A DNA stretch of 64,000 bases from Candidatus Zixiibacteriota bacterium (GCA_046542255.1 JBKHBT010000001.1:41627-105626); one strand, 5' to 3'. Numbered from the stretch's first letter, positions 12,769-64,000 are shown. Numbers and translations are program-made. Notes: generated from the sequence alone by a model not told the origin.

Positions 12769-12795
12769 GCCCGACATTGAATGTCTGGCTTTTTT
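12769..12795 (+). terminator. Putative intrinsic terminator after the DsbD-like gene
   Basis: gcc(c)gacat-tga-atgtctggc imperfect hairpin (one bulge) at 12769-12789, followed by TTTTTT at 12790-12795. Confidence 0.5.
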
Positions 12796-12805
12796 ACTTT
12801 AGGAG

Positions 12806-13477: not shown

Positions 13478-13518
13478 ATTCCAAAAACTATTTTGAAAAT
13501 CTACTCAGGGGGCTTAAA

Positions 13519-15380: not shown

Positions 15381-15387
15381 GTAATAA

Positions 15388-17346: not shown

Positions 17347-17388
17347 TATATTATATAAATTATGTGATGGTTTACAGCAGGAGGAATA

Positions 17389-18903
17389 ATGGAATCGATA
17401 ATACCAAAAGCGGCATTAGTATCTGTTTATAACAAAAATCACGATGTCATAGAGTTTGCCAAAAAATTACTCGACTATGGCATAGATATCTATGCATCGA
17501 GTGGAACTTATGCATATCTCAAAAAAAGCAATATCGTATCTTATCCGCTGGAGCAAATTACAGGCTTCGAGAAGCTTCTCGATGGAAGAGTCAAGACACT
17601 TCATCCTAATATATATTCTGCAATTCTGGGCAAAGAAGATGACCGCAAGAGAGAATTGGCTTTTGATATTGTGGCAGTCGATTTATATCCTTTCGAAGAT
17701 GCCCTGAAATCAGGAAAGCCTCAGAATGATCTTATCGAGATGGTCGATATCGGTGGTGTTGCTTTGCTTCGCGCTTCTGCTAAGAATTATCATTATGTTC
17801 TTTCAATATGCGGAACATCCCAGCTACTAAAAGCCGCTGACCACATGGATGAAAACGATGGCAAGATTCTTCCAGAATTTTCAGCGAAATTTGCAAGGCA
17901 TTCCTTCCAATATACATCATATTACGATTCACTAATCTCGGCCGGCCTCTTTACCGATGAAGATGAGTTTCCCAAGTATATGTCATTGCCATTAAAAGTG
18001 GGACAGAAGCTGCGATATGGCGAAAATCCACATCAAAAGGCAATTTACTACAAACACTCCATTCCTTCACTGACAGGCAGAATGGAAAAGCTCTGGGGCA
18101 AAGACCTATCATACAATAATATTCTCGACATCGATGGCGCCATCCATGCACTTGCTCATCTATGGGGCAAAATTGGTGTTGTTGTTCTAAAGCATACTTC
18201 GCCATGTGGTATAGGAATTGGCAGCAATCAGGTGGATGCCTATGAAAAGGCGCTCGCATCAGATCCGCTTTCTGCTTTTGGCGGTGTTATTGGTGTCAAT
18301 GAAAAGGTCGGGCTGGAACTTGCAAAGTTAATATTGCGATTTTTCGTAGAGGTTGTTGTGGCACCGGATTTCGATGAGGATGCATTGGAGATATTCAAGG
18401 GCAAGAAGAATATCCGCATAGTCAGAATGCCCGACATCGGTTCTTATCCCGAGAAAATAGTTCGCGGAGTAGCCGGCGGATGTCTTGTCTCGGATTTCGA
18501 TAGTCCACAGGAGATTCCAGATTTTGAAGTCGTTTCAGAGAAAATGCCTACTGATGATCAGGTCTGCGATTTGCATTTTGCATGGCGTGCGATCAAGTCT
18601 GTCAAATCCAATTCGATTTTGATTGCCAAAAATGGCGGAACAGTAGGAATTGGCGGTGGCCAGCCCAGTCGGGTAGATGCTGCTATATCTGCAGTTCGGA
18701 AGGCTCAGGATGCTGCGATTGGCGCAGTTGCTGCATCGGATGCTTTTTTGCCTTTCCCGGATACCCTTCAAGTACTTGCGGATGCTGGAGTTACAGCATT
18801 GATACAGCCCGGCGGAAGCAGAAATGATAAGTTATCTATCGAGATGGCGAATAAGCTTGGAGTGGTTTTGGTATTTACCGGGATGAGGCATTTTAGGCAT
18901 TAA
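17389..18903 (+). CDS. purH: Bifunctional AICAR transformylase / IMP cyclohydrolase
   Basis: 504 aa. N-terminal MGS-like domain (ALVSVYNK…GTYAYL). C-terminal …VVLVFTGMRHFRH is the canonical PurH end. AGGAGG RBS. Confidence 0.92.
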   Translation: MESIIPKAALVSVYNKNHDVIEFAKKLLDYGIDIYASSGTYAYLKKSNIVSYPLEQITGFEKLLDGRVKTLHPNIYSAILGKEDDRKRELAFDIVAVDLYPFEDALKSGKPQNDLIEMVDIGGVALLRASAKNYHYVLSICGTSQLLKAADHMDENDGKILPEFSAKFARHSFQYTSYYDSLISAGLFTDEDEFPKYMSLPLKVGQKLRYGENPHQKAIYYKHSIPSLTGRMEKLWGKDLSYNNILDIDGAIHALAHLWGKIGVVVLKHTSPCGIGIGSNQVDAYEKALASDPLSAFGGVIGVNEKVGLELAKLILRFFVEVVVAPDFDEDALEIFKGKKNIRIVRMPDIGSYPEKIVRGVAGGCLVSDFDSPQEIPDFEVVSEKMPTDDQVCDLHFAWRAIKSVKSNSILIAKNGGTVGIGGGQPSRVDAAISAVRKAQDAAIGAVAASDAFLPFPDTLQVLADAGVTALIQPGGSRNDKLSIEMANKLGVVLVFTGMRHFRH

Positions 18904-26400: not shown

Positions 26401-28554
26401 ATCCGAAACAGAAACATAAACCGTAATCTCATCACCATCATCCATGGAAATTGGCGGTTCGAATTCAAGGTTTCCATCTTCGAATGTCATATAATCTGGA
26501 TAGTCATACTCCGAGCCTTCGACAGTTATCGTGATAGAAGTCTCATCGACACCCATCAAATCGGAAATCTCGAAAATCATAGAAAGCTCGGGACATGAAG
26601 TATAGATTGTCGGCTCGATAAGCTCGACCTCTGGTGGTAAGGTGTCCACAAAGAAGCTCCAGCAGCGAGCATTGGAATTTCTGTCACAATATGCAGCATT
26701 GTCGATAGCAGTGATACAAACTTCGACAGAATCACCAGTATAGATACCTGCTTCATCACCGTCTATGCTGAGTGCGCCAGTAACTGGCTCAAATAGAATG
26801 CCGTCTTCGATAAGTATGCCATTGACAGTTATCAGAAAGCCAGTAGCATCGATTCCCGAAAGGTCATCAGCGATATTTGCATGGATATCGAAGCTGGGAT
26901 CGGCTATTAAAGTGTCTGGATTTGGTGATAAATCGGTTATCTCCGGCGGCAATAAATCGAAAATGATTTCGAAAGTATCCGGGTCATAAATACTGAAGCC
27001 TGCGGTATTTCGGACATTAGTCAATACTCCTGTAACAGTATCGCCATGTTCGAAGCAGCCTTCTTCGCCCTCGGGTTCAAAAAACAGCGTATCGCCGGAA
27101 ACTCTGAAACTGGTATAGTCGAAGCCGTGGCCTTCTATCATAGCATCCATAGTACCGGGTTCTATATCGATAGAATCAGGCATTTCGACAAGCCATGCCA
27201 CTCTTGCACATTCGCAGCTTGTAATCTCAGTAGGGTAGAGCAGTGTAACTTCGGGAGCCGGAACATCTGCTTCTATTAATATCCAATGGAAAATCGGCCT
27301 GCCAACGCCTCTGTCCATAAGGACACGATATTGGAAATATCGAAATTCCATATCCAGGTCTTCGCCTTCTTCCACATCGAACCAGTCTGTCCAATCTACA
27401 TCATCGAGGGATATGCGCGCCTGTACTGAAAGGCTTGCAAGCTCGGGTACGGTCTCCGACCAGGTTATTCTTTCAAGTGTGCCGATTCCTGGCAGTGATT
27501 TGACATCGGATTTATAATCCCCAACACCGACACCGCCATTATAGGCATAGTACATGGAATTGATCATGGCCTTGGCTTCCCATTCTATTGGCCGGAATGT
27601 CTCCGGAGAGCCCCTTAACTCTTCAGACTCATGGCCAGTGCTGAAAAATGAAAAGAAGGAATTGTGTTCCGGGTCATTATAAGTATGCATATATGGGATT
27701 CCTGCGTCATTGACATACCACAAATCGCCTCTATCGTGGACTTCGCCAAAATCGTGACACTCTGTAACATCGAACTCTTCGGGCAATACAAATGGTACAT
27801 TCATAACAATTGCATCACCATCTGCGCCGGGCGCCCTTTGCACATGCGTCCATGTTTCATCGGGTACGCAGCAATCTACCCATTCGGCTCTAAGGCCAGT
27901 AAGCTCTGTCATATTGTTAAAATTGGGATGTTCGAAATTATCACTGACTGAACAGCATAGCATTTCCCATGGCCATAAATCATAATGGTCCCTTCCCCAT
28001 CTTTTGGCAATAACATCATGGGTAAAAACAACTCCTTTTCCAAGACGAGCAAATTCTTCGACGGCATTTCTGGCTTCTTCGGAAATATCATTGCTCGAAC
28101 CACCATAACCATTAGCAATGCCGAAAAATATAATATGAAAAAAGGAAACTGGAAGGGTAACTGTGCCACCTGTATATGCGTTTTCGACAGTAAGCTCATC
28201 AGAAGCAGAAGAAATCGAATTGAAATCGTCAAACTCTATTAGGTAAATTCCGAATGTCAACCTGGGCGTGCCATCATCGGAATATTCATTGATAGGGTCA
28301 CTGAGACATTCGACACAATGGTCTTCTGGATAAATTTGAAGGACATAAATTGTATCGTTTTCAGTAAATATCAAAGCGCCATTATCCGGATCTGGTAATC
28401 CATCGGGATCCGGGCTTATGACATCGATATTTTCTGCATCGCCAGTGGAGAAATCAAAAACAGTAGTTTCATAAAATTCTATTGGATAAGCGATTATGCT
28501 TATCGTAAATACAAAAAGAATAAGTCCGATGCATAATTTGGCATACTTAGCCAT
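23473..28554 (-). CDS. Giant secreted cell-surface protein with T9SS type-B C-terminal sorting domain
   Basis: 1693 aa. Signal peptide. N-terminal alpha/beta region (HIIFFGIANGYGG…GKGVVFTHD). Many ~100-aa Ig-like modules. The last ~90 aa are FTPNDDGYNDDIDFSF…GKIEIFDMRGQ…GTYLYIITVDGERVCKGTLTLIR, the gliding-motility/CHU_C-type T9SS type-B CTD (FTPNGDGxND motif). Confidence 0.75.
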   Translation of the reverse strand: MAKYAKLCIGLILFVFTISIIAYPIEFYETTVFDFSTGDAENIDVISPDPDGLPDPDNGALIFTENDTIYVLQIYPEDHCVECLSDPINEYSDDGTPRLTFGIYLIEFDDFNSISSASDELTVENAYTGGTVTLPVSFFHIIFFGIANGYGGSSNDISEEARNAVEEFARLGKGVVFTHDVIAKRWGRDHYDLWPWEMLCCSVSDNFEHPNFNNMTELTGLRAEWVDCCVPDETWTHVQRAPGADGDAIVMNVPFVLPEEFDVTECHDFGEVHDRGDLWYVNDAGIPYMHTYNDPEHNSFFSFFSTGHESEELRGSPETFRPIEWEAKAMINSMYYAYNGGVGVGDYKSDVKSLPGIGTLERITWSETVPELASLSVQARISLDDVDWTDWFDVEEGEDLDMEFRYFQYRVLMDRGVGRPIFHWILIEADVPAPEVTLLYPTEITSCECARVAWLVEMPDSIDIEPGTMDAMIEGHGFDYTSFRVSGDTLFFEPEGEEGCFEHGDTVTGVLTNVRNTAGFSIYDPDTFEIIFDLLPPEITDLSPNPDTLIADPSFDIHANIADDLSGIDATGFLITVNGILIEDGILFEPVTGALSIDGDEAGIYTGDSVEVCITAIDNAAYCDRNSNARCWSFFVDTLPPEVELIEPTIYTSCPELSMIFEISDLMGVDETSITITVEGSEYDYPDYMTFEDGNLEFEPPISMDDGDEITVYVSVSDNVANTLESEAFSVTRDFAPPYLVDEYPEAGYVIGDSITDIYFNLDDELSGFDTSTVSIMIDGVSYDPIWDGTRFYLSEDVVPHFDDYDTVEVCTYFQDLAGYCGENEGDTCWSFSINLSGPIANFIMPEDETVTSCNEGPLYLSIRDVNGVVESSIEFYIDGEFFTTTSPSASYIGDTLIYTPSPAWSHGDTVDVMVTAAEDSLGNPISDTLEGRFYVDTSPPHVLPIYPRIGGTAAGDPVMSIYIYDEIAGIDPSSIIVDVNDTELRYIDSPAGMWLSDSEDTIYIDFAAAGLSFEDTAYIEIQIADAPDFCEANSTTFEYFFVVDMVGPEAYFILPDSGAYSSCENQEIRLWLYDDNGLDLESMVFNVNDSTFPWPASELSLNDDTLIFRPTAPFGHGDSITASLMQISDTLGNEHTDEIFTEFYIDIEPPELLEVSPEPDSVIIGQFDVPVWFIIDDDMCGIDFETMIFTIDSDTLDNSHLDINGDTVYFDPSDVAFSYSEDDSFDFTIYIADCAEYCGANDTFYNTNFYIPDDDTLPPIMHSPSPSNWVQDSAFYIEFALEDSSGIFITGDFSDAQAAYIEWDTDGELDISSNRIYIEFHDFVDGDSIYRSRAPIPAQDGDIIVSWRLHCYDNDFDLDNRDDRTLLLSEIHEVNIAPRPDIELIHPPNGSVIACQSEEDHVLFFSIHSEEQVEESSIEIEIDGEIFTLSDYRLELTSPDTIVFSPSEPFDQGSLLVRLNGLSDIYGYEAVQRTWHLVFDFSPPQLWFSYPEPGEMIPDDAPYVEFGAMDYFSDVNTNAFAAYILSAYYDTIATVTSLDCIEETTDSSGTWDINFNACGFDYSGYDSFTVIVYAEDSPDFCSPNWRTDTLKFWVEPDLDCGLSTNPFTPNDDGYNDDIDFSFPNLYSLGGKIEIFDMRGQKARTIEVDAGEIEKSVFDGKSDNDKDLPSGTYLYIITVDGERVCKGTLTLIR

Positions 28555-35885: not shown

Positions 35886-36782
35886 ATGAAACGATCGATT
35901 TTGAAAATATCGCTCGCACTAATTATAGTTTCAGCATTTTTCTTCACCGGCTGCGACACATGCGTAAATTGCAATGACCGATATGATGATTGCTGCGATG
36001 AAGACTATTATCCACCGCCTGTTCCCTATGATGTCTATACCACTACCTATGATGGCTTCATAGAGATCGATTGGCATCCGATCTATTCCAGCGATTTTGA
36101 TTATTATAGAGTTTGGCGCGGTTACTATGAAAGTGGAGAATACACACTCATAGGCGAAACATCCACTGCATTCTTCACAGATTATAATGTCAGAAATGGC
36201 CAGACTTACTATTATGCAATCAGCTCTGTCGATTATTGGGGCAATGAAAGCGAAATGTCATATGAAATCATCTACGACACGCCTAGGCCAGAAGGCCATA
36301 GATATACAATCTATAGCGGTGATTTGTATCCTGAGTCATCTGGTTTTGACTTCTCGGAGAGATATGTCGTACCCTGGGATGATGTAAACTGCGATGTATT
36401 CTTCAGCTATGATAGCGATATCGAAGAGTTCTATCTTCAGGCCGGAAACGATATGACAGATATTATGGACTATGGCTATACAAGTGATCTTCAGGATGTC
36501 GATTTTGCCCCGGAGACAGGATGGGACCCGGAAGGCTGGGAAATTGCACAGAGAGGCCATTCCTATATCATATGGACATCCGATAATCATTTCGCACATC
36601 TGCGAATAACCAGCATGTACGATGACAGGATCATATTCGACTGGGCCTATCAAACCGATACTGGCAATCCAGAGCTTTTCCACAGGACGGAGAAAGAATT
36701 GCCTGTTCGAGATATGATAACAGAAAGAACAATCGAAAGAAATAATAACTATTCAGAAAATATCACCATGGAGGAAAAATGA
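35886..36782 (+). CDS. Lipoprotein with fibronectin-III-like domain
   Basis: 298 aa. Signal plus FFFTGC lipobox. Cys-rich stretch (CDTCVNCNDRYDDCCDED). FN3-like YRVWRG…TAFFTDYNVRNGQTYYYAISSVDYWGNES. GGAGG RBS. Confidence 0.5.
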   Translation: MKRSILKISLALIIVSAFFFTGCDTCVNCNDRYDDCCDEDYYPPPVPYDVYTTTYDGFIEIDWHPIYSSDFDYYRVWRGYYESGEYTLIGETSTAFFTDYNVRNGQTYYYAISSVDYWGNESEMSYEIIYDTPRPEGHRYTIYSGDLYPESSGFDFSERYVVPWDDVNCDVFFSYDSDIEEFYLQAGNDMTDIMDYGYTSDLQDVDFAPETGWDPEGWEIAQRGHSYIIWTSDNHFAHLRITSMYDDRIIFDWAYQTDTGNPELFHRTEKELPVRDMITERTIERNNNYSENITMEEK

Positions 36783-38137
36783 GACGCGCAATATTAATCG
36801 CAATAATTGCAATAGCTGCAATAATCCCAATCACGGCGCAGGCCGATTATGCCCTGATATTCCATTACTCGACCGGATCACCTTATGTCCCTTACTATCC
36901 TTATGTTTACACCGACTACGAATACTACTGGGACTACTATGACCTTATCGTAATGGATGATTTTTGGGATCCATTCCCTTGGTTTACTCGCCACTGGGTA
37001 AGGACTTACTATAGCCCCTGCGGATGGTATCGTTATCACTATTATGATTATCCATGCCATGGCTGCACGAGAGTCTATGTCAATGGCCGTTATCGCTATC
37101 GCTATCCAGAACCACGGCGAACCAGATATGTCCATCGAAGCTCGAATTATCCTACAAGGAGTGAAATAGTCCGCGAAAGATATGTCGAAAGGACAAGAAG
37201 TACTGCTCCTACAAGAACAGTTACCAGAACAAGGACGACTTCATCGACCAGAACACCGGAAACCAGAACAAGGACAACACCTGCGACCAGAACTACAGAT
37301 TCAAGGCTCTACAGAGAAGGCGAATCATCCAGCAGAACAGAATCTTATCCCGAAAATTTAAGCACAAGAAACCGTACTGAATCGAGAGCACACTCGACAG
37401 AATCCACAAGGGATATCACCCCCGATCGTAATGATGAAGTAACTTCGAGAAGGCCAAGCGAAATTGGTTCCAGCCCGAAAACTGCCACCAGTTATTCATT
37501 AGATGATACCGAAGAGCGTTCAAGCAGCCCTCGAGGAACAAATATCGACAGTAAAACACGAGATATAGAATCTGTTTCTGAAAAACCAGAAAAGCCCACC
37601 AGCATTTCCAGAGAATCTTCGGCCGCTAATATCGATAATTCCAATAGAGCAAATGTCAAAGAAGAAAGCGAAACTTCTGATGGGGGCTGGGAAGAATACT
37701 ATCGTGGCAGGTCTTTCGAAAGAGAAGAGAAAAGAAGCTCAAGAACAATCGAAAAACCATCGACTTCGTCCAGAGCATCTTCGACGATATCAAGATCGCC
37801 AGCTCCAGAATCGAAATCATACACCCCTCCGTCTCCATCGAATTCTTCGCGAAGTATTTCCACTTCACCATCCAGCCGCTATGGCACAAAACCAATGAAA
37901 AGCTACGAAACCAAAGATGATGATGACGACAAAAAGAGCACGAAAAAATATATTGCTCCTTCAAAAAGCAAAAAGAAATCCACAAGTAGTAGCAGCTCAA
38001 AATATACACCAACATCCAGAAGCAAAACATCTGGGTCATCTTCCAATAGCTCCAGCAAATCGCCAGCTAGCAGAAGTACACGAGGTTCGAGCAGCAGTTC
38101 CAATTCCAGTTCATCACCCAGAACAAGGTCGAAATGA
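36779..38137 (+). CDS. Secreted intrinsically disordered protein: Tyr/Trp/Arg-rich N-domain, (T-R)n tract, Ser-rich tail
   Basis: 452 aa. Signal peptide. About 26 Tyr in the first ~118 mature residues (…PYVPYYPYVYTDYEYYWDYYDL…RYRYRYP…). Four Cys. Then RTRSTAPTRTVTRTRTTSSTRTPETRTRTTPATRTT. Then a long S/T/K/R-rich tail. Start overlaps the upstream gene stop (ATGA). Confidence 0.55.
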   Translation: MRRAILIAIIAIAAIIPITAQADYALIFHYSTGSPYVPYYPYVYTDYEYYWDYYDLIVMDDFWDPFPWFTRHWVRTYYSPCGWYRYHYYDYPCHGCTRVYVNGRYRYRYPEPRRTRYVHRSSNYPTRSEIVRERYVERTRSTAPTRTVTRTRTTSSTRTPETRTRTTPATRTTDSRLYREGESSSRTESYPENLSTRNRTESRAHSTESTRDITPDRNDEVTSRRPSEIGSSPKTATSYSLDDTEERSSSPRGTNIDSKTRDIESVSEKPEKPTSISRESSAANIDNSNRANVKEESETSDGGWEEYYRGRSFEREEKRSSRTIEKPSTSSRASSTISRSPAPESKSYTPPSPSNSSRSISTSPSSRYGTKPMKSYETKDDDDDKKSTKKYIAPSKSKKKSTSSSSSKYTPTSRSKTSGSSSNSSSKSPASRSTRGSSSSSNSSSSPRTRSK

Positions 38138-38292
38138 ATTCAAGAGAAATCGACATAATTGCAGAAGAAATTCTCCCATCAACGAATGCAGCTTCGCAGG
38201 CCACTGCGGAGCTGCAAAATTGCAAGCGAAAGGAGCCTCTCGAAAAATACTTGCAGCTAAAGATTTGTAATGATATATTCTAAGGAGATATT

Positions 38293-38808
38293 ATGAGTAC
38301 TAATAAAATAAACAGCTATTCGATAATCAAGATCCTAATACTTCTTTTTTTAGTATTAGCAGGAAGTATTTTTGCCGATGATGATGAGAACGATGACAAT
38401 AAATCATTTATCAAATGGCTTATGGAAGCATCGGATGAATCTTCATCCAGGAAAACAGCGAGAAGCAGCAATGGCGAATCCTATGACTATTTCCAGGATT
38501 CCAATGACAATGGTATCGATGACAGATTAGAGAAAGAACGCTCTAAAGATACCAATCCGACTAAACAGAGGAAGTCAATAATCAATTCAGAACCTTCAGG
38601 TAAGTCGATTGGTAAAGCAATTGAATCAGAAATTCGAAACTCATTAAGAGAAGACTCCCGGGAAGATGCTCCAGCACCTTCGATACGGAGAAAGGAAAGC
38701 CCCGGTTCTTCAAAAAACAGCAAAAGAACAATCAGCCCCTCCAAAACAAAAGATAAAAATTCCACATCGAATTCCGAAAACAAAAGCAAGAAAAAACGAA
38801 TAAAGTAA
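38293..38808 (+). CDS. Small secreted charged low-complexity protein
   Basis: 171 aa. Signal peptide. D/E/S/K-rich. GGAG RBS. No recognisable domain. Confidence 0.4.
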   Translation: MSTNKINSYSIIKILILLFLVLAGSIFADDDENDDNKSFIKWLMEASDESSSRKTARSSNGESYDYFQDSNDNGIDDRLEKERSKDTNPTKQRKSIINSEPSGKSIGKAIESEIRNSLREDSREDAPAPSIRRKESPGSSKNSKRTISPSKTKDKNSTSNSENKSKKKRIK

Positions 38809-48699: not shown

Positions 48700-51600
48700 A
48701 TGAATAAAAATACTGTTTTTGCGTTTTTGCTGTTTGTATTAATCTTATCTACAACCTTATTTTGGTTTGCATGCCAAAAAACTTCTAATCCCATTGGGGT
48801 TCAGGAAGATAAAAATTGGATTATTGATTCTCTTTATACCGTTCCATCGAGTTTTCCTTATCAGGGGATTGGGTATGTATATGCAGATGTAGTCGATGAA
48901 GAGACTGGCGAACCATGCGATGATCCATCGATTTATGTTACATTTTCCAGTCCCAATGATACCAGTATTTTTAGCAATTCCATTTCTTATGTCAATAGCG
49001 ATGGAATCGCTGCCTCTCGAGTCAGTCTGAGAAATATTACCGATACAACTGAAACCCTGGTTGTTATAGATGCGACTATTGAATATCCCAATACAGACTA
49101 TGAAAGTTATTATCTAAGCGTTGGTGACCAGGCAGCATCTAAAGCTGCTGATATCGAGCTGGAGGCAAGGCCGGATACCGTTTTTGCTGATTCGTATGAT
49201 ACCGTTATGGTCTCTTGCACAGTAATCGATTCATTTGGAAGCACGATTGAAAATGTCAGGGTTTACCTTGAAAGCGTAAGCCGAAATTTCACTATTCCAT
49301 CTGGCAATTATTATACCGATGAAACCGGAGTAGCGCATGTGCCGATTCCGGCGCCAACTGCGCCGGGTGAAGGCGTTCTTCGGGCTTATGTATATGGAGC
49401 CGCAGAAACTATCGTAGATGATACTGTTAGTTTCTGGTTCATTCCTGAGGCACCTGTTAGTAATATACAGCTTACTTCCGATGATATGCAGATTCCTGCC
49501 GATGGAATTTCTACTACAACGCTATCGGCAAGAGTAATGGTCGGTGAACCTTCTGCGCCTGCTCCCGATGGAACACCGGTTACATTCGAATCTGATAATG
49601 GTTCTTTCCAGGACTATGTTTTCGCAACAAGAAGAAATCCTAATCCATCCGAAGCAGAAGGCGATGGTATTCAGGAGAGCCAGTCGAGCTGGACTGCATA
49701 TACCGAAGACGGAGTAGCGAGAGTGATTTTGGTTAGTTCCACCGAAGCAGATTCTGTTACAATTACCGCAACCTCAGATCTTGTAACTGCAGAACATACG
49801 ATTTTATTTACACCGGGCGAACCTGCTATCATAGAGCTTGAATCCAATGAATCTTCTTTGATTGCAGATGCTTCGGATACAACTTCGCTAACAGCTACAG
49901 TGTATGACGAATATAGAAATACTGTCAATGCCGGGATCACGATTGAATTCGATGCCGATATTGGCTTTACTTCTCCTGCGGCCTCGAATACCAATGTTAA
50001 TGGTGTCGCGAGGTCTTTACTCAGAAGTGCTAATTCTTCGGGATTAGCTACAATCACAGCTTCATATGGTTCGATTGTAGATCAAGTCGAGGTCATCTAT
50101 CGTTCGACTACGCCACAAAGGCTGACAATGACTGTCGAACCGAATGAGCTACTCGCAGATGGCTCCGAAACGGCAACTGTCCGAGTCCAGGCTTTGGATG
50201 AAAACTATATCGCAGTTACCGATGGCGTTCCGATATCATTCGAGACTAATAAGGGAAGCTTCAGTCCTGCAGCATCTTACTTAGAGAGGCCTTTCGAGAA
50301 TGATGATAACGATGAGATAAATACCGATGGAATCGATGATGATGATTTGCGGATGTCGATTAGCGAAGCGATGCTGGAAGATGATTTTGTCGCGTTGACA
50401 GAAGGAGGCTTCGCAGAGGTTACTCTCAGGAGTGATACTATTGCTGGAGTCGCTGTCGTCAGAAGTTTCCACATGACAGGCGATAGTTACGATGCAATAG
50501 ATACTGCCAGAGTTCCTTTCTATCCAGGGCCACCACAAAGAGTTGAAGTGTCTTTCTACCATGATACGATAACTGCCAATGGAGCAGACACAACTACTGT
50601 TTATGCAACAGTTTACGATGAATATAATAATAGCATCGGTAGTGGCTATACAGTTGATTTCTCTACAGTAGAAGGTTCTGTTTTCCCGACTTCGCAGACC
50701 ACAGGCTCCGATGGTATTGCAAGAACCAAACTGACATCCAGCCTTAATTCTGGAATGCACTATATTACAGCTACGGCTTCCGGGATAACAGCCAATACAA
50801 ATATCTATTTTGAAGCATCCCGGCCAGCAGAAATAACGCTTAGAGCCGATGCCTATACTATGCCGGCAGATGGTATATCAGAGAATATTCTTACAGCCTA
50901 TCTTTACGATGCTGCCGGAAGGCCTGTCTCCAACGGGACCAGAGTGGAATTTGCCTGTTCTTTGGGTGAATTCAGCCTTTCTTCTTTGTATCGTAGAGGA
51001 ATTAGCGAAGAAGAGCCGGGCGATGGAAGAAAAATCGGCCATGGTTTGCGTAGCTTCTCTACAATGGATTCAGAAGAGATTTATTATGCTTATACCGAAG
51101 ATGGCCAGGTTTCTGCCAGCCTCATCAGCCCAACTTCAGAAAGTACTGATACTTCTATTTATGCCAAAGTTGTAACCGATTCGATTATACCACCGGCTGA
51201 CACGCTTGTTTTAGCAGATACTATATCGATTTCTTACATATCCGGTGATATTTCAAGAATTGGAGTTGTTGCAGCACCGACAAGTATTACTAATGATAGC
51301 TCCGAAATTACCGCGACTTTATATGATGAGCATGATAATCCAATGGGCGAAGGAATACTCGTTGAGTTTTCCACTACAATGGGTTCTGTTAATTCGCCAA
51401 TAGTAACCGATACATTGGGCCAGGCAAAAACATACCTATTCCCGGGTTCCGAGACAGGTACAGCTACGGTTACCGCAAGAGCTGGCGAGGTTTCAGGTTT
51501 TGTTAATGTAAATATTAGGCCGGTGAATGTCGGTGAAATTTACCTTTCTCTCTCATCATCAGAAATGACAGTAGATGGCGAGACAATCGACCTCGAAGCC

Positions 51601-54600
51601 TATGTTACAGACGCAGACGGTTATCCAGTATCCGATAGTACACCAATACATTTCGAAAGTACAATTGGCGAGGTGATGCCAGTCGTCGATAATACGGCGA
51701 GAGGACTGGCAATATCTCAGTTATCTCCTACTGGCATTATTGGCAAAGATACTGTGATTGCAAGATTTGATACTTCCGTTGCAGATACTGCTTTCATTAA
51801 AATTAAAGCCGGTGCTCCAGCAAGTATCGTTATGGATGTTATGCCCGATACGATGTACACTGGTGGATTACCATCCGGGCAGGTTTGCGCAACTGTCAGA
51901 GATGTTTATGATAATATTGTAGCATTTGGCACTGTGATTAATTTCGAAATTGGTGAAGGAGCGATTATTCCACAAGCGCCTACCGATAGCTCAGGTATTG
52001 CAACAGCGACTGTTACATCTCCTTTAGAGCCGGGAGCTACATACATTACAGCAAGCTATGGCGGTGTTTCTTCGACTGTACCGGTGGTTTTCGAAAGCTC
52101 ACCTGCATCAGAAATTATTTTGACAGCTTCCAGCAATGAGATTACTTTGGATGAAATATGTTCTCTAACGGTTGTTGCTATCGACACAATCAGTGGTGTA
52201 ATAAGCGATGGTGTCCGGGTTAATTTCATAAGTGATTTTAGTGATATTGTACCTCCAATCGCTTTTATCGAAGATGGCGAAGCTGTTTCTTATGCCTATC
52301 CAAATGAAGTAAATACTGATAGAATCGTTGCAATAGTTGGAGAACTTGCCGACACTGTCGAAGTCAACTATAATCCGGGAGATGTTACCAGAATCGAGAT
52401 TACTTCTGATGAAAGCTGGATATATGCCAATGGTTCATCCCGGACAACAGTGAGAGCAAGATGTTATGATTCAGAAGATAATCCTGTCGACAGAGGCGTC
52501 AGGCTCGATTTTAGTTCTACGATGGGTGAGCTTATACCTTCATCGGGAATAGGAATAACAAATTCTAGCGGTGAAGCTACAATAATTTTGCAAAGCAGTA
52601 CAGAACCAGGCACTGCTGTTATCCAGGCTACATATGAGGATCTTATTGAATTTGTTAATATAGATTTTATCCGTTCCGGTGCTGATGAGGTAATACTCCT
52701 TCCATCATCCAGAAGCTTCAAGATTGGTGACAATGTTACTCTTAGAACTTTAGTCTATGATGAATTGGGTGATCCAATTACAGATGATACTCCTGTCGAA
52801 TTATACAGCATTCTAACAGATCCTATTGGTATTCCAGTACCATCCAGGCCAAGAACCATAGATGGCGAAGCGTTAAGCGTTCTCTCTGATCGTGGCGAAG
52901 TGGGGGTTGAGACAATTGTTGCAAATGTAGATTCTGCATACGATACAGTTTCAATAGAAATAAAACCTGGTGATCCTGCAAGGATAGAGCTTTCTGCTAC
53001 GAGTTCTTTCCTATTCGCTAATGGTTCGCATACTTGCGACATTGAAGCAACCGTTTATGATGATAATGATAACCTGCTTCATTCCGGACAGATAGTCAAT
53101 TTTAGCACATCTATGGGAGAACTGGGTTCGTCTGTTGGCGTTACGAGTGACTCGGGTGTTGCGGCTGTAGAACTTCAGTCGGGAACCGAAGAAGGCACAT
53201 GTGTTGTGCAGGCTTATATCGGCGATATCGTAGCTATCGAGACGATCGACTTTATGGCATCCAATGCAGGCAATATTCAAATTATACCATCATCCAATAG
53301 AATCACACTCGGAGAGATTGACACAGTTTTGGTCATGGTACAGGATACCGATGGTTTACCAATTTCTGATGATACACCTGTTATTCTGGAGAGCTTAAAT
53401 GATTTCTTGATTCCAATACCTGGCGTAATAAGGACATTAGATGGTGAAGCTACAGGTTATCTCTATACTGCCGGAGAGCCTGGAGTAGATACAGTAATAG
53501 CATATTCTGATCCTGAGACAGCATCGGTCGAAATAACAGTTCTGCCTGGCGAGGCAGAATTGATCGAATTGGAAGCGCTACACAATCCAATACTTGCAAA
53601 TGGAAGAGACACTTCTCGTATTCGCGCTACAATCAAAGATTCTGATGGTAACAATCTTGGCGCTGGCCAGAGAGTCGATTTCACGACTACAAAAGGCGAA
53701 ATCCAATCAACCGGAATTACAAATATCGATGGTGAAGCCGAGGTACTATTAACAGCAGGTTATGAAGATGGTACTGCCTATGTCGAAGCGACTTATGAAG
53801 ATTTATCACAAATTGTCGAAGTTCAATTGAGTGGCTCTGAAGCTTTTTGGCTCGAACTTATGCCATCTACCAACAGGCTTAGACTTGGAAATACCTGTAC
53901 ATTGGATGTTATTGCATATGATGCCTTATTCGAACCGGTAACCGATGGTTCACAGGTGTTATTTAGAAGCGATTCTGGCGTTGGACTGGTAATTCCACCC
54001 GCAACAACTACAACAGATGGCCAGACCAGATCATTTTTGTATTCGAATGAGCAAATAGGCAGGGATAGTATTTCTGCAAATATGATAGGTGCCAATGATG
54101 GCTCCTGGATTGAATTCATTGCCGGCGACCCTGCTCAGATATCAATAGAACCAGCAAGAGTTGACCTGTTTGCTGATGGATTAGATACCACACAGATCAA
54201 AGTTACAGTCTTTGATGAAGACTCTTTCCGAGTCAGCAGTGGAATCGAAGTCGATTTGGAAACAACTTCGGGAACAATCGAACCTTTGACATCATATACA
54301 AATAGCAGCGGCGAAGCTTTCGCTACTTTTACTGCGCCAACTGTTCCAACTACTGCCTATATTACCGCTACCGTTCGAGATATCGAAGCAAATGCTTTGA
54401 TTAATATCGAAAGGTCCGAACTCGGTAGCATTAGTATCATTCCAAGCAAAACAAGAATGTCGTTGGGAGAAAGCTGTACTCTGGATGTTTTCGTCTATGA
54501 TGATTCAGAATCCTATATTTCAGACGGAACAAGGGTCAGTTTCAGGTCGGAAATTGGTTTTATAACTCCGCCAATTGTGGAAACTTCTGATGGACATGTA

Positions 54601-57600
54601 CAATCGATTTTGCATACCAGAAGGGATGTCGGAACCGATATCGTTACAGCAAGTGTTGGCGGAATCGATTCTACTATCGAGATTAATTTTGTTTCTGGTA
54701 AGCCAGCTACTATCGAATTAAACCCGGACGAGAATCCTATCTATGCCAATGGTTATTCAAGGACAAGAATTGAAGCAACAGTCGAGGATGAATATGAAAA
54801 TCCTGTCAAGGCAGGATACAGGATTAATTTTAGCGCAACCTTGGGAGAACTCGAATCAGAGATTGGAGTAACCAATAGCTCAGGAATTGCCGAGGTTTAC
54901 CTAAAGAGTGGAATCAGAACAGGTACATCGGTTATACAAGGTTGGTACAATGATATTAGCGGCCTTACGATGGTTTCTTTCGACCAGGATACTGCTGGAA
55001 GTATCGAGATTATACCTTCGAGCAGTTCGATAAGACTCGGTGAAATAGATACATTAACAATAATGGTGTTCGATACAGTCGGGATGCCGATTGCCGACGA
55101 TACTCGAATCGAAGTAACACTCGATACATCGAGTACCGGTATGGTAATACCGAGGGTATTATGGACTGAAGACGGTGAAGCGACTACTTATCTGTACACC
55201 ACTGGCGATACTGGCAGAGCTATTATTACAGCAGCCGTAGGAAGAACAACCGCAACAGAAACAATTGAAATCGAGGCAGGTACGGCTGATAATATCGAGC
55301 TCAGTGCTTCTGATTCTACTTTGCCTGCAAATGGTGTTACGAGAACGAATGTCGTAGCTAAAGTATTGGACGATGAGGGATATGTCTTAGGAGCAGGCCT
55401 TGTTGTCAATTTCACCACTACAATGGGTACAATAGGCGCTGTTGCTGTAACAAATACAGATGGTGAAGCAACTACTACATTGACAGCATCAAATGATATT
55501 GGTGTTGCTCTCGTAGGAGCATCTTATGCAGGGGTCGAGCAATATATGAATGTAGAAATGGTTTATTCTGATATCGCATCTATCGATATGTTTATCGAAC
55601 CATCGACAATAAATCTTGGTGATAGCTCAATAATTAGTCTTTCTGTTCTTGATTCCGACTTTGAACCGGTTACCGATGGCACAAGACTGGAAGTAACTAC
55701 TTCTCCATTCGGATATGTCCGTCCGAGAATTGTCAGAACTGTTGATGGTGAAACTCAGGCTATTTTTAAAGGCGATGGGTTGACTGGATCTGCAACAATA
55801 AGAGCATTCCAGGATAGCTCTGTTGAAATGGCTATGGATACTATAGAAGTTCTCCCTGGTATTCCTGCTAATATACAAGTTAATGCAATTGTAGATTCAT
55901 TCTTATATGCCAATGGTGTGGATACTGCATCTATCATTGTCGAGGTTACAGATGCTGATGGCAATCCCGTTGGCGCCGGGCTAACTGTCGATCTCGAGAC
56001 AGACCTTGGGACACTCATGCCAAATATTGGAATTACAGATGACGATGGTATGGTACGAGTCCGTTATCGAGCAGCTAATTCTCCAGGACTTGCTCTTATA
56101 ACAGCTACATGCGAAGGTGAAGAAGGACTTGAAACTATAGAACTTCGAGAAGCAAATGCGGATATAATCGAGCTTTTCTCGGACAGTCCAATCATACAAA
56201 TTGGCGATACCGATACAATTTCGGCTTATGTCTATACTATAACTCCTGAAGAAGATACCTTATTCGTGTCTGATGGCACAAGAGTGAATTTCTCTACAGA
56301 CAATGGTTTAATACTACCTCCAAGCTCTAATACTGTTGATGGATATGCTTTCAGCGTGCTTAGTACAGGTAGGGAACCAGGAGAAGCAACCATTGTTGCA
56401 AGAGTTGGAGATACGGTAGATTCTACAAAAGTACAGATATTAGCCGGCAGGCCCGACAGAATCATATTGGAGGCTGAAAGGAATGATCTTTATGCCAATG
56501 GCTTCGATGAGACTACAATAAAAGCAGTAGTCGTAGATGAAGATGGCAATTCTGTTGGCAGCGGGCTTGTTTTAAATTTCTCGACGGATCTGGGAACTGT
56601 TACTTCTGCCGCTATGACGCAGGATGACGATACTGCTAGAGTAACATATACAGCCGCAAGCGAAATTGGAGTGGCAATAATTACAGCCGAATACGAAGGA
56701 ATAACTTCGATTTTACCTATTACTTTAGAAGAAGCTCCAATTGGAAATGTCGAATTAATACCATATAAAACAGAATTTGGCCTGACCGAAGTATGTACCT
56801 TGCAAGCCTTTGTAACCGATTCTGCTGGTAATGATATTGCAGATGGAACAAGAATTACATTTACCTCGAATCTCTGCCGAGTTGAGCCTCGTTATGGATA
56901 TACCGAAAGAGGTATGGTTTTTGCTGTATTGTATCCAAGAGACTCGATAGGAATTGATACTGTCGAAGCAATATGTGGTGAACGAGATATGGCTAGAATA
57001 AAAATTCTGCCTGGAGAGCCCAGTGATATTTTACTTAATACCCAGTTTGATAGAATCTATGCAAATGGTTTCGACACAACCGATATTGCTGCTCAGGTTG
57101 TAGATATTTATGGTAATCCAGTTCTACCAGGTAAACTGGTTAACTTTACAACGGATTTAGGCTCGATTATTAGTGTCGGGATAACAGATTCCCTATCACC
57201 AGATTCTATGGGAATCGCAAAATCTATATTGACCAGTGAATCAGTTCCTGGAATTGCTATTGTGAACGCTGAATGCGAAGGAGCTAGCGGTTCTATACCT
57301 GTCGAATTTATGGAATCTATCGTAGATGAAATGATTATTCATGCAGATGACAGAACATTATCTTATCGTGATACAACAAGTATCAGAGTAACTATGTTTG
57401 CAGGTGGTACATATGTTTCAGATGGAACTATGGCATTTTTCAGCGCAGAGAATGGACAAGTCAGGCCTATCATTCAATCTACAACCGATGGCGAAGCGGT
57501 AGTTGAATTTTATGCTAATGATTCTCTTGGGCCTGCTTCTGTTACCGTTCATGCTGGAGATACATCAGCTAGTGAAACAGTAGATCTAACAATCGAACCA

Positions 57601-60600
57601 GGCATTCCTTCCCGAATTCAATTAGAAGTCCAGCTGGACTCGATCTATGCAAATGGTATTTCGACAGATTCAATACATGCTACTGTTTACGATGAAGAAG
57701 ATCATATTGTAGGTCCAGGAGTAATCGTGGACTTTACAACTTCGTTAGGCACAATAGCCCCATTTGGAATAACAAATGAGGATGGCAGAGCAAGCGCAGT
57801 TTTAACCTCCGGTTCAGAAACTGGTTGGGCAAATATATCTGCTACAAGCGGAGGCGCATCGAGTAATACGCTCGTTAAATTCTTTAATGCCAATGTGGGA
57901 AGTATCGAGCTAATACCTGAAAGATATGTTATAAATCTCGGAGAAACAATAAATCTGAGAGCTTATGTCCTCGATGAGGATACACTCGAGATAACAGACG
58001 GAACCAGAGTAAGATTCTCAAGCATTCTTGGATATGTAGATCCAATAATTTCAACTACAAGTAGTGGAGAAGCATACTCGGTTCTAAATACTACTACCAA
58101 TACAGGTTTTGATACTGTAACAGCAGTCGTCGGAGATAAAGTAGATACTGTTTTTGTTGAAATACTTTCCGCAGAACCCTATAGGATTACTGTAAGTACC
58201 CAGTTTGATTCTATTTATGCTAATGGTACAGCCAAGAGTAAAGTCTATGCATATGTAGAAGATAGATATGGTAATCCAGTAGAAGACGGTACACCAATTG
58301 AATTCACTACAACTTTAGGTGAGATTATTAATGTTGCTTATACCGATAGCATAGGTGTAAATGCCGCAGGGGACCCAGTATTGCATCCTGACAGCATAGA
58401 TCATTATGAAAATGGATATGCAATAAGTGAAGTTCAAGCGCCAAATGAACTGGGTGTCGGATATATCAATGCCAGCTATGGTGCAATTAGAGGCGTTACA
58501 AGCATTAAATATTATAATGCTTCCGCTGGGCGCGTAATCCTAAGAGCAAGCAGCTCATCGATAACACTCGATGAAAAAGATACACTCACTGTTCTGGTTT
58601 ACGATGAGGATGATGCACCGATAGGTGATGGAACAGTCGTGAATTTCACTACCGCGAATGGTATGGGCATTGTTATTCCACCGGTTGCTACAACAGTAGC
58701 TGGAGAAGCGCAAGTTGTTTTCGAACCATTTGATACGATTGGTTTCGAGACAATAGTAGCCGATGTCGATGGAGAAGATGATAGCCTTACAATCGAAATA
58801 AAACCAGGTATTCCTGCAAACTTAGACCTTTTCCTTGCTGACTCTTCAGACTCGATTTTACCTGCCGATGGCTACTCAGAAGCGACTATTATGGCTCAAG
58901 TAATAGACAGATATGGTTATGAGGTCGGTTCTGGCTATCGGATTGCATTTACAACACCTACTATCGGCACAGTCGAGCCAAGCGAAGCCTATACTAATGA
59001 CCGCGGACAATGCGAAGTCAATCTTATCAGCACTACTACTGAAGGCATGGCAATTGTACGTGGTGAAGTAGAAGGCGGTATTTTCGACCAAGTCGAAGTA
59101 AGATTTGTAAATAGCTCTGTCGGCAATGTAATTCTTTCCATCGAAAATAATATTGTCCAGATCGATGAGGACAGATCCAATCAAATTAGTGCTCTGGTAC
59201 TGGATGCGTCCGGGAGAAGAATAACTGATGGAACAGAAATCGAATTCGATGCAACATATGGTGAAGCTATTCCACCGATTGCATTTACGACAGATGGTAT
59301 GGCAACGGCCGATTATTCACCAGGTATTGTTACTAATACAGATATGGTATCGGCTTATGATCCTATTTCTGGTGAATCCGATTCTTTATTCGTATCTGTT
59401 AAAGCTGGGATTTGCCAGCTATGCTCTGTTACAGTTTCTGAAGATTCTGTTGCATCGGATGGCGGAACTTGCGAGATAACAGCCTATTGCTATGATTTCT
59501 ATGACAATCCTGTCGAAGCGGGAAGACCCGTTACATTCACGACTTCGATTGGTTCGATTATTGGAACTGCCGTTACAAATGAATATGGAGAAGCAAAAAC
59601 CATGTTCACAAGTGGAAATGTATTGGGAACATCTATTATAACAGCAGTTTGTGAAGAAGGAACCGGTACTGGGGAAGTAGAAATTATAAGGCCGAATATC
59701 AGATTTATTAGTATGTCGGCAGACCCATTAAATATTACAGCAGATGGTTTTTCAACCTCTAATATAACAGTACGTGCATATGATGATGAAGCCAATCCAA
59801 TATCATCGGGAGTTATAGAATTCACAAGCTATAACGCCGAATTTGGCCCGGATAGTACATTAGGTGAAATTGACTCGATTGCTCCCATAACAGATGGAAT
59901 TGCAACAGCATTGTTTAGATCAGAAAGAGAAATTGCTACTGCATGGGTTATTGCAGAACGATTTGGTATAAGAGATAGTATTCAAATCGACTTAATCGCC
60001 GGTGAACCATTTGCAATAGATTTAAATGCAATGCCACCAAGTCTTCCTGCCGATGGCGAATCAGAATCTCAGATTACGGCGACAGTCAACGATGAATATG
60101 GTAATATTGTTAAACCGGGTACACAGGTTAATTTTTCAACTGATTTTGGTCGGCTTTCACCAGCGCGTGGCTGGACAGATAGTCTTGGACAGGTTATAGT
60201 TGATCTTGTAAGTCCTGACTCGATATGCATTACTACTATTACTGCAACATCAGGTGCTGCTGAAGGTTTTGCTACTGTTGAATTTGAAGAAGTCATTGCA
60301 GATACAATTATACTTCTTTCAGACTCACTCTCTATGGAAGCAAATGGCAACTCCAGGACGACTATTACAGCAATAGTCCAGGATTCAGACGGAGGTGTTG
60401 TCCCTGATGGAACTATTGTTAATTTCCGGGCAAGAAACTCGATTTTATTGTCCAATACTGCATTAACTACCGATGGTTTTGCCGAAGTCGAGCTTCGTGC
60501 AAGCACTAATGCTGTTGATAGTGCAAAAGTTGTTGCAAATATCGGATTGGTTTATAGCGATTCACTCGTGATGAACCTTCGTCCTGGCAATGCCGCAAAT

Positions 60601-63600
60601 ATCCTTCTCACAGCAGATGATACAACTATGAGCGCAGATGGCGACACTATGGTAAATATCTATGCATATGTAGAAGATCTATATGGAAATATCGTTACCA
60701 GTGGAACTAAAGTTAATTTCACAACTTCGCTCGGTACAATCGATAGTATTGCATTTACAGATGAACTGGGTATTGCCGAGGTCAATTTCCGTGCTGGCAC
60801 AACTCCAGGTATTGCGCAAATTATTGCAAATAGCTCTGAAGCGGTTGGAGTATTAGGAATTACTCTCGAAGATACAGAAGTAGATGAAATTCTCGTTAAT
60901 GCCGATCCAACTAGATTGGTTGTTGGTGGTACGACATCTGATATCACAGGCCAGGCATTGAATGCTCTTGGTGCTCCGATATCCGATGGCGCTCCGATAA
61001 CAATAAGTGTGCTAAATGATTCTCTTGGTACTGTTTTCCCAACAAGAGCTTTGACAGATACCGGATATTTTGCTTCGACTTTCCGAGCCGGTAGAAAAAC
61101 CGGAAATACATATATCAAAGCTGGAACTGGCAGTGCAGAAGACTCAGTCGAGATTGAATTAATTGCTGATGTTCCATATCGCTTCGATTCATTATATCCT
61201 GCCGATATAAGTATTCCTGCCGATAGCTTGACAACAACAGAAATTAGAGTCATGCTTGTAGATAGGTTTGGTAATCCTGTTGCTGCCGGAACAGAAATAG
61301 AATTTGAATCCAGCCTGGGAGATATTGAACTTAATACGACAACAGATACAGAAGGCAAGGCTCAAGTCATCTTGCAATCTGGACGCGAAAGTGGAGTTTG
61401 CAGAGTTACAGCCACATCTGGCGATGCTATTGCAACAACAGAAGTAGTATTCGATGAAACAACACCGACTTCCATATTGCTTGTGTCCGATGATAGAGAA
61501 TTAATTGCAGATGGAAATGCTAATACATTCTTAAGGGCTACTGTTTCTGATACTCTTGGTGCTGCTGTTTCCGATGGTACTCCAGTAACCTTCTCGATAG
61601 CTCCTGATTCATTAGGCTATATTCTTCCGAGAGTCGCCACTACCACCGGCGGCGAAGCTGTTTCCGTTCTCAGGGCAGCTACTTCACTCGGAGAAGCTGA
61701 AGTCATAGCACAATCCGGCGATAGCACAGGCTCGACACCGATTGAATTTATTGCAGGCCCACCATACGATATCGAAGTAGAAGTCGCTGATTCAGCACTG
61801 GATACAATCCCGGCAGATGGCTTCTCGACAAGCGATATAAGAGCGACTGTATATGATAGAAATGGAAATACAGTAGCTGGCGGTTATGAAGTTGTATTCA
61901 ATACAACTGCAGGCTCTTTAGACCCGACTACAACGACTACAAATTCCGAAGGTGAATGTATCACAACCCTTACCAGTTCAACAAGAGAAGAATTTGCTAG
62001 TGTTCGCGGTACTGTAGAAGGTACAATAATAGACCAGACCGAAGTATTCTTCCAGTCCAGCACAGTTGACGATATAATTTTGACTATTGAAAATAATAAT
62101 GTACAAATAGGCGATGATACACCTAATACAGTAACCGCTCTGGTAGTCGATGCTTTCGATAGAAGAGTAAGTGATGGTACATATGTTACTTTCCAGGTCG
62201 ATTATGGCGAATTGCTTTCAATGGATGGCTATACGAGCGATGGAGTAGTAACGACCGATTATCTGCCGGCTACTGTCGATAGTTCAGATACTATAATTGC
62301 CTTTAATTCTGATTCAACAGTCGCAGATACTGTAACTGTGAGTGTCAAGCCAGGAATCTGCCGAAATATAACTGTCGATGTCGATCCACCAGAAATAGCT
62401 TCTGATGGCCGTGGCTCCAGTGCGATTAGTGCAGAATGTTATGACTTCTATGGTAATCCTGTCGAAGCTGGACGTGATGTTACTTTCACAACTACGATTG
62501 GTACTGTGATTGGAACAAGTATTACTAATGAAAATGGAATCGCACGCTCTATTTTAACCAGTGGCCCAGAATTGGGTACAGCCGTCATAACAGCAAGATG
62601 CGAAGATGGCGTAGGCACAAATGAAGTGGATATCATCGAACCAGAGATCGCTTTCATAAGCGTGAATGCTGACCCAATCGATATCACTGCTGATGGTGTA
62701 TCGACTTCGGAGATTACAGCCAGAGTTTATGATGACGAGGCAAATCCAATAACAAGTGGACTTATCAAATTCTCGAGCTTTGATTCATTAGGTAGTATAA
62801 TGGGCGATATCGACACTATTGCTGCTATATCTGGTGGAATTGCAACAGTAGATCTTCGCTCAGCGCCAACTGTCGGCACTGCTATTGTTAAAGCATACAC
62901 AGATGCAGGAATTTCCGATAGTATCCTGGTAGATTTTATTCCAGGAGTACCTAATTCTATAGAATTAGAAGCTAATCCAGATACACTACCGGCAGATGGA
63001 CTTTCTCTCTCACAAATCAAGGCCAAAGTCAAAGACGAATTTGGCAATACAGTAAAACCCGGAACACAGGTCAACTTTGCAACAGAATTCGGACGACTTT
63101 CTGCCAGTAGAGGTTGGACAGATGATACCGGATGCGTTTTTATCGAACTAACAAGTGCAGACTCTATCGGAGTAACAACTATTACAGCAGAATCCGGCGA
63201 TGCAATCGGATTCGAAAATGTAGAGTTTACTCCAATTGTTGCCGCATCGATAGAAATCTATTCAGACTCGATGTCTCTGGAAGCCAATGGTAATTCGCGT
63301 ACAACGGTTAATGCCACTGCCCTCGATGCTGATGGACTCGCAGTTCCTAATGGTACTCCAATAAGATTCTACACGACCGAAGGAATCATGATTCCGAATT
63401 CTGCTACAACTTCAGAAGCCATAGCATTATCCGAGCTTCGCGCCAGCACCAATGCCGGCGATACAGCTTTTGTCTACGCAGAAGCCAGTGCTACGGTTCG
63501 TTCTGATAGCATTGGAATATACCTGAGGCCTGGTGAAGCTGGTAATATTGTCCTGACACCAAATGAAAGCACCTTACCCGCAGATGGCGATACATTCACA

Positions 63601-64000: not shown

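Follow-up and report, generated by a model that had tools for sequence, protein, structure and literature searches.

A tandemly duplicated ten-domain block, very probably old and now stable, in a giant Ig-like-domain protein gene of Candidatus Zixiibacteriota

We analyzed a stretch of 64,000 nucleotides (nt) from Candidatus Zixiibacteriota bacterium (GCA_046542255.1, JBKHBT010000001.1:41627-105626; hereafter the window), in which the 5' part of a giant gene, encoding a predicted surface protein made of immunoglobulin (Ig)-like domains, carries a tandem super-repeat of ten such domains (Table 1). Frame +1 is free of stop codons from 48688 to 64000, the last base of the window, and the start codon is the ATG at 48700 with an AGGAGG box just before it. 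A hidden Markov model (HMM) built from the giant protein itself divides its 5,104 residues into 51 domains of ~97 amino acids (aa), designated W1–W51. Ten non-identical domains (U1–U10) are followed directly by a second copy, and we consider it very probable that this block was duplicated in tandem long ago, within a giant and probably lipid-anchored surface fibre, and that both copies have been kept since and are now stable.

Table 1 Coordinates of the giant gene, its super-repeat and the genes upstream of it (window positions).
Feature	Position	Strand	Remarks
lnt	43095-44591	+	Pfam
755-aa propeller protein gene	44588-46855	+	Pfam
FemAB/GNAT-like gene	46852-47826	+	Pfam
Giant gene, 5' part, 5,100 codons	48700-64000	+	at least 51 Big_1/Invasin_D3 Ig-like domains; exits window end
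Lipoprotein-like signal peptide, MNKNTVFAFLLFVLILSTTLFWFA before C	48700-48774	+	basis: sequence reading
26-domain array W8–W33	51250-58800	+	alternating A/B domain types; 5' of super-repeat
Super-repeat copy 1, U1–U10 (W34–W43)	58819-61767	+	983 aa / 2,949 nt
Copy 1, U1	58816-59109	+	
Copy 1, U2	59110-59391	+	
Copy 1, U3	59407-59688	+	
Copy 1, U4	59689-59997	+	
Copy 1, U5	59998-60288	+	
Copy 1, U6	60289-60576	+	
Copy 1, U7	60583-60870	+	
Copy 1, U8	60871-61164	+	
Copy 1, U9	61180-61455	+	
Copy 1, U10	61456-61752	+	
Motif CYDFYDNPVEAGR in U3 of copy 1	59488-59526	+	partner CYDFYGNPVEAGR at 62437-62475
Motif GTTPGIAQIIANS in U7 of copy 1	60796-60834	+	identical motif at 63742-63780
Super-repeat copy 2, U1 to part of U8 (W44–W51)	61768-64000	+	ended by window end
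Copy 2, U1	61753-62052	+	
Copy 2, U2	62056-62343	+	
Copy 2, U3	62350-62637	+	
Copy 2, U4	62638-62940	+	
Copy 2, U5	62941-63231	+	
Copy 2, U6	63232-63522	+	
Copy 2, U7	63529-63816	+	
Copy 2, U8	63817-64000	+	partial

Kilobase-scale segments of the giant protein matched Pfam Big_1 at E = 1e-60 to 1e-65, with 199–217 bits and 6–8 stretches per ~1,000-aa segment versus a cut-off of 34.9. These repeated matches above the gathering score assign the protein to Big_1 (PF02369)/Invasin_D3 (PF09134), and no Pfam matches of substance other than these two were obtained with the pieces tested. A profile derived from 17 window domains matched invasin (1CWV, E = 2e-10), intimin (6TPL/1F00) and a Big_1 fragment (5LDY) in the PDB; a phmmer search of the PDB with the 983-aa unit gave no match even at E ≤ 1. 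In Pfam, N-terminal pieces of 1,200 and 400 aa matched only Big_1, Invasin_D3 and related Ig models, without an inverse-autotransporter barrel, and the full-length orthologue P0007 matched Ig models only, with no lectin-like tip and no RTX, type IX secretion system (T9SS) or other non-Ig domain.

The protein begins with MNKNTVFAFLLFVLILSTTLFWFAC, a hydrophobic signal with Ala-Cys at its end. The signal consists of 24 residues followed by Cys and reads ...LFWFA before that Cys, so that position -3 differs from the canonical Leu. The N-termini of the relatives P0005, P0006, P0007 and P0012 share the layout of a hydrophobic stretch, Ala, Gly or Ser at position -1, and then Cys. The giant protein is thus read as probably lipoprotein-like, with a putative lipobox. 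Three domains of the N-terminal module, W3, W5 and W7 (49456-51183), are Big_1 domains split by inserts of ~30–60 aa that look acidic or low in complexity (e.g. ...ENDDNDEINTDGIDDDDLRMS...). The module as a whole appears to be conserved among orthologues, because P0005, P0006, P0007 and P0012 have domains whose best matches are W3, W5 and W7.

A sequence-only reading of the window had proposed a roughly 3-kb tandem duplication of about ten Ig domains, aligning collinearly domain by domain, as an old higher-order event and not a single-domain array. It was indeed found where proposed, with a unit of exactly ten domains and 2,949 nt and a period of 2943–2949 nt. In self-BLASTP, performed with 500-aa chunks since the whole-protein query returned the self match only, the three top matches were all located at +980 to +982 aa (45–57% identity, 356–469 bits), versus at most 37% identity and 259 bits at every other offset. 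In a global alignment, identity rises where nt 58819 is paired with 61768 and stays up to the window end. Direct alignment of the two copies gave 54% aa identity over 744 aa with ~10 gap columns, as compared with 22–35% for other domain pairs in the giant protein. In the domain matrix, all eight visible pairs ten domains apart were reciprocal best matches (41, 42, 49, 58, 58, 59, 59 and 64%), the other partners of these domains all remaining at or below 39%; the probability of such an outcome by chance is ~(1/43)^8. The in-frame nucleotide autocorrelation of 58819-64000 likewise had its maxima at lags of 2946 and 2949 (z = 9.8 and 8.4), with z = 5.5 for the next-best lag. The off-diagonal of ~2.95 kb was therefore present at both the protein and nucleotide levels, and not just the periodicity of ~285 bp; collinear similarity was higher several domains apart than at all other offsets, as in a multi-domain block duplication. 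Moreover, in the columns outside the Big_1 consensus, same-position identity was 43%, versus 17% for other same-type pairs, and the signal therefore reflects common ancestry, not merely shared core motifs.

Both GTTPGIAQIIANS and CYDFY.NPVEAGR are present at exactly two places, 981–983 aa apart, as had been read from the sequence, whereas LEANGNSRTT, also assigned to both copies, is confined to copy 2; copy 1 has MEANGNSRTT, leaving EANGNSRTT as the shared part. The longest exact DNA word common to both copies, 14 nt at 59506/62455, sits in the CYDFYDNPVEAGR motif of U3. Three Cys positions of U3 are kept in both window copies, and P0005 appears to retain them as judged by eye. Among nine aligned U7–U8 sequences, only that of the window has PGIAQIIANS, which is also present in the second window copy and in the closest relative, the fragment P0025 of locus L001. 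A 232-aa open reading frame (ORF) on the minus strand (60660-61358), antisense to copy 1, had no Pfam match and was judged probably spurious.

The junction at 61768 lies in frame at a U10/U1 domain boundary. As the source is a metagenome-assembled genome (MAG), two diverged strain or paralogue versions of the region might have been joined head to tail during assembly. Such an artefact is, however, extremely unlikely in view of this in-frame junction at a domain boundary and the lack of a stop in 15.3 kb, the lack of any k-mer common to the copies and able to bridge an assembly graph, the 54% aa identity (a divergence far above strain variation), and the presence of same-phase tandem units in at least ten independent orthologue assemblies.

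In DNA, the copies are less similar than the 70–75% identity estimated in the sequence-only reading. The codon-aligned identity is 60% (66, 74 and 41% by codon position, with a chance identity of 30% at third positions), and BLASTN pieces between the copies have 63–65%. The proportion of synonymous differences (pS) is 0.67, the synonymous divergence (dS) ~1.7 and the ratio of nonsynonymous to synonymous divergence (dN/dS) ~0.24, showing that both copies are under purifying selection; there has been no recent homogenisation of the copies, because dS is ~1.7. Throughout the giant gene (48700-64000, 15.3 kb), no 21-mer occurs twice. The longest exact repeat in it, the 20-nt TCTATGCATATGTAGAAGAT at 58244-58263 and 60659-60678, encodes part of ...VYAYVED... 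and has an offset of 2,415 nt, which is not that of the super-repeat; it is probably coincidental, because the same peptide is encoded in two A-type domains. With a longest shared word of 14 nt and no repeated 21-mer, the copies therefore offer no useful substrate for homologous recombination today and nothing ambiguous for a k-mer assembler. At k ≥ 21 the array contains no repeated word and it appears to be genetically stable, and the view that it is a hotspot for assembly collapse found no support.

Relatives of the super-repeat were sought in several ways. An exhaustive HMMER search with copy 1 retrieved 2,322 Big_1 proteins, and four weak matches were all that a word-indexed search of proteins with the unit returned. 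Scanning genome, metagenome and viral collections for the pattern of the copy 1/copy 2 alignment revealed no relative, and a metagenome scan for the subclade of the window and L001 (PGIAQIIA pattern) found nothing closer than 36%; in the locus search, a nine-sequence alignment was too divergent, and a three-sequence alignment was used. The top HMMER group consists of giant proteins of 3,900–6,000 aa with a lipobox-like N-terminus, from unclassified and Zixibacteria MAGs (P0005, P0006, P0007, P0008/P0166, P0009/P0168 and P0012). The closest relative is L001 (JGI Ga0496409_0002916; 42–48%), on which the fragments P0025 and P0066 both lie. Its giant gene (1-18535) is broken by frameshifts into at least 12 called ORFs and is badly scrambled at 8535-9920, being a pseudogene in decay or else the product of error-prone long-read assembly.

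Mapping the domains of the relatives onto those of the window gave the same order, U1–U10. On the mean over P0005, P0007 and P0012, eight of the ten unit positions were best matched by the same position, and the U-strings of independent proteins and loci agreed, so that the orthologues have the same order of domain types. A census with position-specific HMMs found the unit in 21 of the 169 proteins examined, all in the giant Big_1 family, a result that is circular for the training sequences (the window, P0005, P0007 and P0012) and independent for the others; ten more loci, from GTDB species representatives, came out of a second genome scan. The P0007 cluster has one unit; P0005, P0006/L002, P0168, L003 (UBP14 UBA6098), L004, L007 and L008 have two; P0166, L010 and L011 have three; and L009 has at least four. 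The last (2-11566 of CAYUDB010000080.1), a contig comprising this gene only and open at both ends, contains four consecutive 8-domain units and part of a fifth with mutual identities of 47–63%, the highest count seen in the family. Second and later units mostly have 8 domains, lacking U2–U3.

The three genes upstream of the giant gene in the window also precede it in L002, L003, L004, L007 and L008, and L006, a short contig, has the FemAB-like gene before it. In tblastn with the window neighbours at these loci, identities were 42–45% for lnt, 24–26% for the propeller protein and 44–47% for the FemAB-like gene. The order of lnt, propeller, FemAB-like and giant genes is conserved, and these giant genes are therefore positional orthologues. 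Collectively, the giant lipoprotein-like Big_1 proteins at this conserved locus constitute an uncharacterised orthologous family of Zixibacteria and related MAGs, in which the ten-domain block is a module of conserved order, older than the window duplication. By eye, the C-terminus of the 755-aa propeller protein resembles a T9SS sorting domain. An intergenic gap of 870 nt lies 5' of the giant gene.

The differing unit numbers bear on the proposal that the super-repeat is an active recombination substrate, with a fibre length varying among strains as in Periscope proteins and an array prone to assembly collapse. Unit numbers of one to at least four in orthologues imply repeated gain or loss at the unit level, and young copies that are still near-identical would not be seen in short-read MAGs. 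However, across the genomes examined, pairs of units within one gene are only 35–63% identical in protein and 45–63% in DNA (12 genomes), the window copies combine the low DNA identity and high dS given above with the lack of long shared words, and the Periscope class is defined by very high DNA-level repeat identity (PMC9704523). Furthermore, six P0007-orthologue variants, assembled independently and 95.3–99.9% identical, all have 3,919 aa with zero indels, and two P0006 variants both have 5,158 aa. These observations, of which the equal lengths come from orthologue clusters, argue against ongoing length switching, and a currently active recombination substrate is very unlikely. Length variation by recombination, as anticipated in the sequence-only reading, thus holds over deep evolutionary time but not for a present-day substrate, and the copy-number comparison that it recommended revealed differences among orthologues, with equal lengths among the close P0007 variants.

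For the timing of the duplication, U4–U8 were compared: the window copies are 57% identical to each other, 45–47% to the L001 unit and at most 46% to all others. Neighbour-joining placed the two window copies together in 100% of bootstraps, joined by P0025 in 99%. The two copies inside P0005, and likewise those inside P0006, were never together (0%), and the second-type units of P0006, P0008 and P0009 came together in 100%. Copies 2 and 3 of P0166 form a second lineage-specific pair, with 59% identity. The window duplication is thus lineage-specific, because its copies are each other's closest relatives. These comparisons show that an older duplication, into first-type and second-type units, was followed in the family by at least two unit duplications that arose independently, the window's being one. 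In L001, a single first-type unit is followed by ~1.4 kb of Ig sequence with frameshifts and then by U7–U8 of a second-type unit, with a spacing that fits 10 + 8 domains and no extra copy; by analogy, a second-type unit probably follows in the window gene past 64 kb. The layout predicted there is the end of copy 2 (U8–U10) at ~64.0–64.7 kb, an 8-domain second-type unit (U1, U4–U10, with the U7 insertion seen in P0006_c2 and L001_c2), ~15–20 A/B domains and an Ig-only C-terminal module of ~600 aa.

Several points weigh against an old, lineage-specific and now stable duplication in a lipid-anchored fibre. The trees are neighbour-joining trees of very divergent sequences. In U1–U2, the two window copies and L001 form a three-way split with 41–42% identity each, and since they are equidistant there, the window duplication is about as old as the split from L001; the two events may coincide in age, or U3–U8 may have been modified by partial gene conversion. 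Only 7.6 of the ten copy 2 domains are inside the window, the total number of units and the gene end lying outside. Lipid anchoring is read from the sequence, the census is partly circular as described above, and the lack of young copies may partly reflect survivorship bias, because short-read MAGs cannot resolve near-identical 3-kb repeats.

Taken further, the uneven identity along the unit (41–42% in U1–U2 versus 49–64% in U3–U8), together with the three-way split in U1–U2, is compatible with the window duplication being the ancient first-type/second-type one of the family, whose copies look like sisters owing to later gene conversion of U3–U8. Yet copy 2 of the window retains U2 and U3, which are missing from the second-type units of most relatives, and by eye it is devoid of the U7 insertion seen in P0006_c2, P0008, P0009 and L001_c2. 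L001, with one first-type and then a second-type unit, has no space for a third, and the sister relation has the full bootstrap value given above. An ancient duplication masked by gene conversion is consequently improbable, and we favor a separate duplication in the window lineage.

Upstream of the super-repeat, the domains W8–W33 have a different periodicity. Their mean identity is 31% at even and 22% at odd domain offsets, the nucleotide autocorrelation is maximal at 1155 nt (4 domains), and the BLASTP offsets are multiples of ~193 aa. Many B-type domains classify as U2-like, five of them with a clear score margin, which suggests that the A/B array is an expansion of a U1–U2-like pair. The array is shared with L001 (aa 2393-3374 versus L001:3048-5840, 40.6% over 964 aa) and is missing from P0005 and P0007, in which the N-terminal module adjoins U1 directly; judging from these sequences, W8–W33 is an insertion specific to the lineage of the window and L001. 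A third, older super-repeat copy 5' of 58.8 kb was also considered and rejected, the offset-10 identities of W24–W33 versus W34–W43 (19–38%) being those of the background.

A functional super-repeat like that of titin, with position-specific roles, a periodic partner or defined spacing, and selection acting on whole units, would account for the retention of position order across distant orthologues (eight of ten on the diagonal), features tied to single positions (e.g. the three Cys kept in U3), the repeated gain of whole units in the same phase, and the dN/dS of 0.24 in both copies. On the other hand, 8-domain units without U2–U3 are as common as 10-domain units, the insertion of 26 generic A/B domains upstream in the window lineage means that spacing is not fixed, unequal exchange between tandem units already present would keep the phase in any case, and no partner is known. 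Functional constraint of this kind is unlikely, and with equally low confidence the block may be imagined as a bacterial counterpart of the titin super-repeats, a position-specific module whose order is kept throughout a deep clade of Zixibacteria-related bacteria and which is gained or lost only as a whole because it fits a periodic partner or gives a lipid-anchored surface fibre a quantised reach of ~40 nm.

The best-supported account is the tandem duplication of a block that is now stable, with the following course. The host gene is a chromosomal gene of a Zixibacteria-related bacterium, and its product a giant, probably lipid-anchored fibre consisting almost entirely of invasin/intimin-type Ig domains, for which surface exposure and an adhesin role are inferred. 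The ten domains were very probably copied in tandem as one piece, near the split from the closest sequenced relative, presumably through unequal crossing-over or through replication slippage, acting between in-phase domains or units already present at a time when these were still similar. The block was duplicated independently in several lineages, yielding one to at least four units, and both window copies were then retained under purifying selection. The invasin crystal structure has ~3.6–4 nm per Big_1 domain; with such rod dimensions, each unit would lengthen the rod by ~35–40 nm. The copies are now too diverged to recombine, and the array is stable, which sets it apart from arrays whose repeat number varies.

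Outside the giant gene, the window has the content of an ordinary chromosome, with a housekeeping-gene context, and encodes DnaE, PurB, alanine racemase, Lnt, RarA/MgsA, two serpins and T9SS-tagged proteins. Its DnaE matches, at 100% identity, a protein encoded on a 125-kb contig of a 'Candidatus Zixiibacteriota' MAG. The serpin genes (40568-43007) are in tandem and encode products of 395 and 413 aa (Pfam Serpin, E = 1e-95 and 3e-112) with signal-like hydrophobic N-termini; serpins are uncommon in bacteria. Three consecutive ORFs at 35886-38808 encode products of 298, 452 and 171 aa with signal-like N-termini, the first two without a Pfam match; an extreme enrichment in Ser, Thr, Arg, Tyr and Pro marks the 452-aa product, and that of 171 aa is rich in Ser, Lys and Asp. 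The second large surface protein of the window, of 1,693 aa (23473-28554, minus strand), matches Big_5/Big_13 weakly and carries, at its C-terminus, a CHU_C domain of type IX secretion.

Finding higher-order periodicity within the gene of a giant surface protein is thus not enough to infer hypervariability or misassembly. Length in the giant Big_1 family has evolved by whole ten-domain modules on at least three separate occasions, which makes the family a clean bacterial example for the study of domain-array growth, and the family comparison yields a checkable prediction for the unseen remainder of the giant gene.

Among known systems, the invasin/intimin family (inverse autotransporters, type Ve secretion) has Big_1 arrays of 2–47 domains. 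The window protein resembles its members in the domain family (Big_1/Invasin_D3) and in the rod-like extracellular array expected from it, but differs in having no N-terminal β-barrel or LysM and a lipobox-like Cys signal instead, and by its sequence it would stand outside the type Ve secretion family. In size, its closest counterparts are SiiE, with 53 BIg domains and a type I secretion system (T1SS), and the Mobiluncus adhesin, with 51 Ig domains (PMC5466336, PMC10619420). They share a length of more than 5,000 aa, ~50 Ig-like domains and a presumed stalk role with the window protein, which differs in its Ig family (Big_1), in its putative N-terminal lipobox versus a T1SS signal or sortase motif, and in phylum. 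Periscope proteins (Whelan et al. 2021, PMC8201768) are likewise monomeric surface stalks of tandem Ig-like domains whose length differs among homologues. Their repeats, however, are near-identical in DNA and vary in number between close strains, whereas the repeats here are 45–63% identical in DNA and close variants are equal in length, so that neither hallmark of the Periscope class is seen in the copies and orthologue clusters compared.

The classic multi-domain block duplication is that of the 7- and 11-domain super-repeats of the titin A-band. Compared with titin and other domain-repeat proteins, the window case is bacterial and has no exons, its unit comprises 10 (or 8) Big_1 domains in one to at least four copies, and no periodic partner is known. 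It shares with them a similarity maximum at an offset of several domains with dissimilar neighbours (22% here), a duplication located inside the array and not at its end, and an order kept between copies and orthologues. Duplicating several domains at once is the usual mode of expansion of domain repeats (Bjorklund, Ekman & Elofsson 2006, PMC1553488), and the super-repeat described here is an ordinary multi-domain block duplication of this kind in an uncharacterised family.

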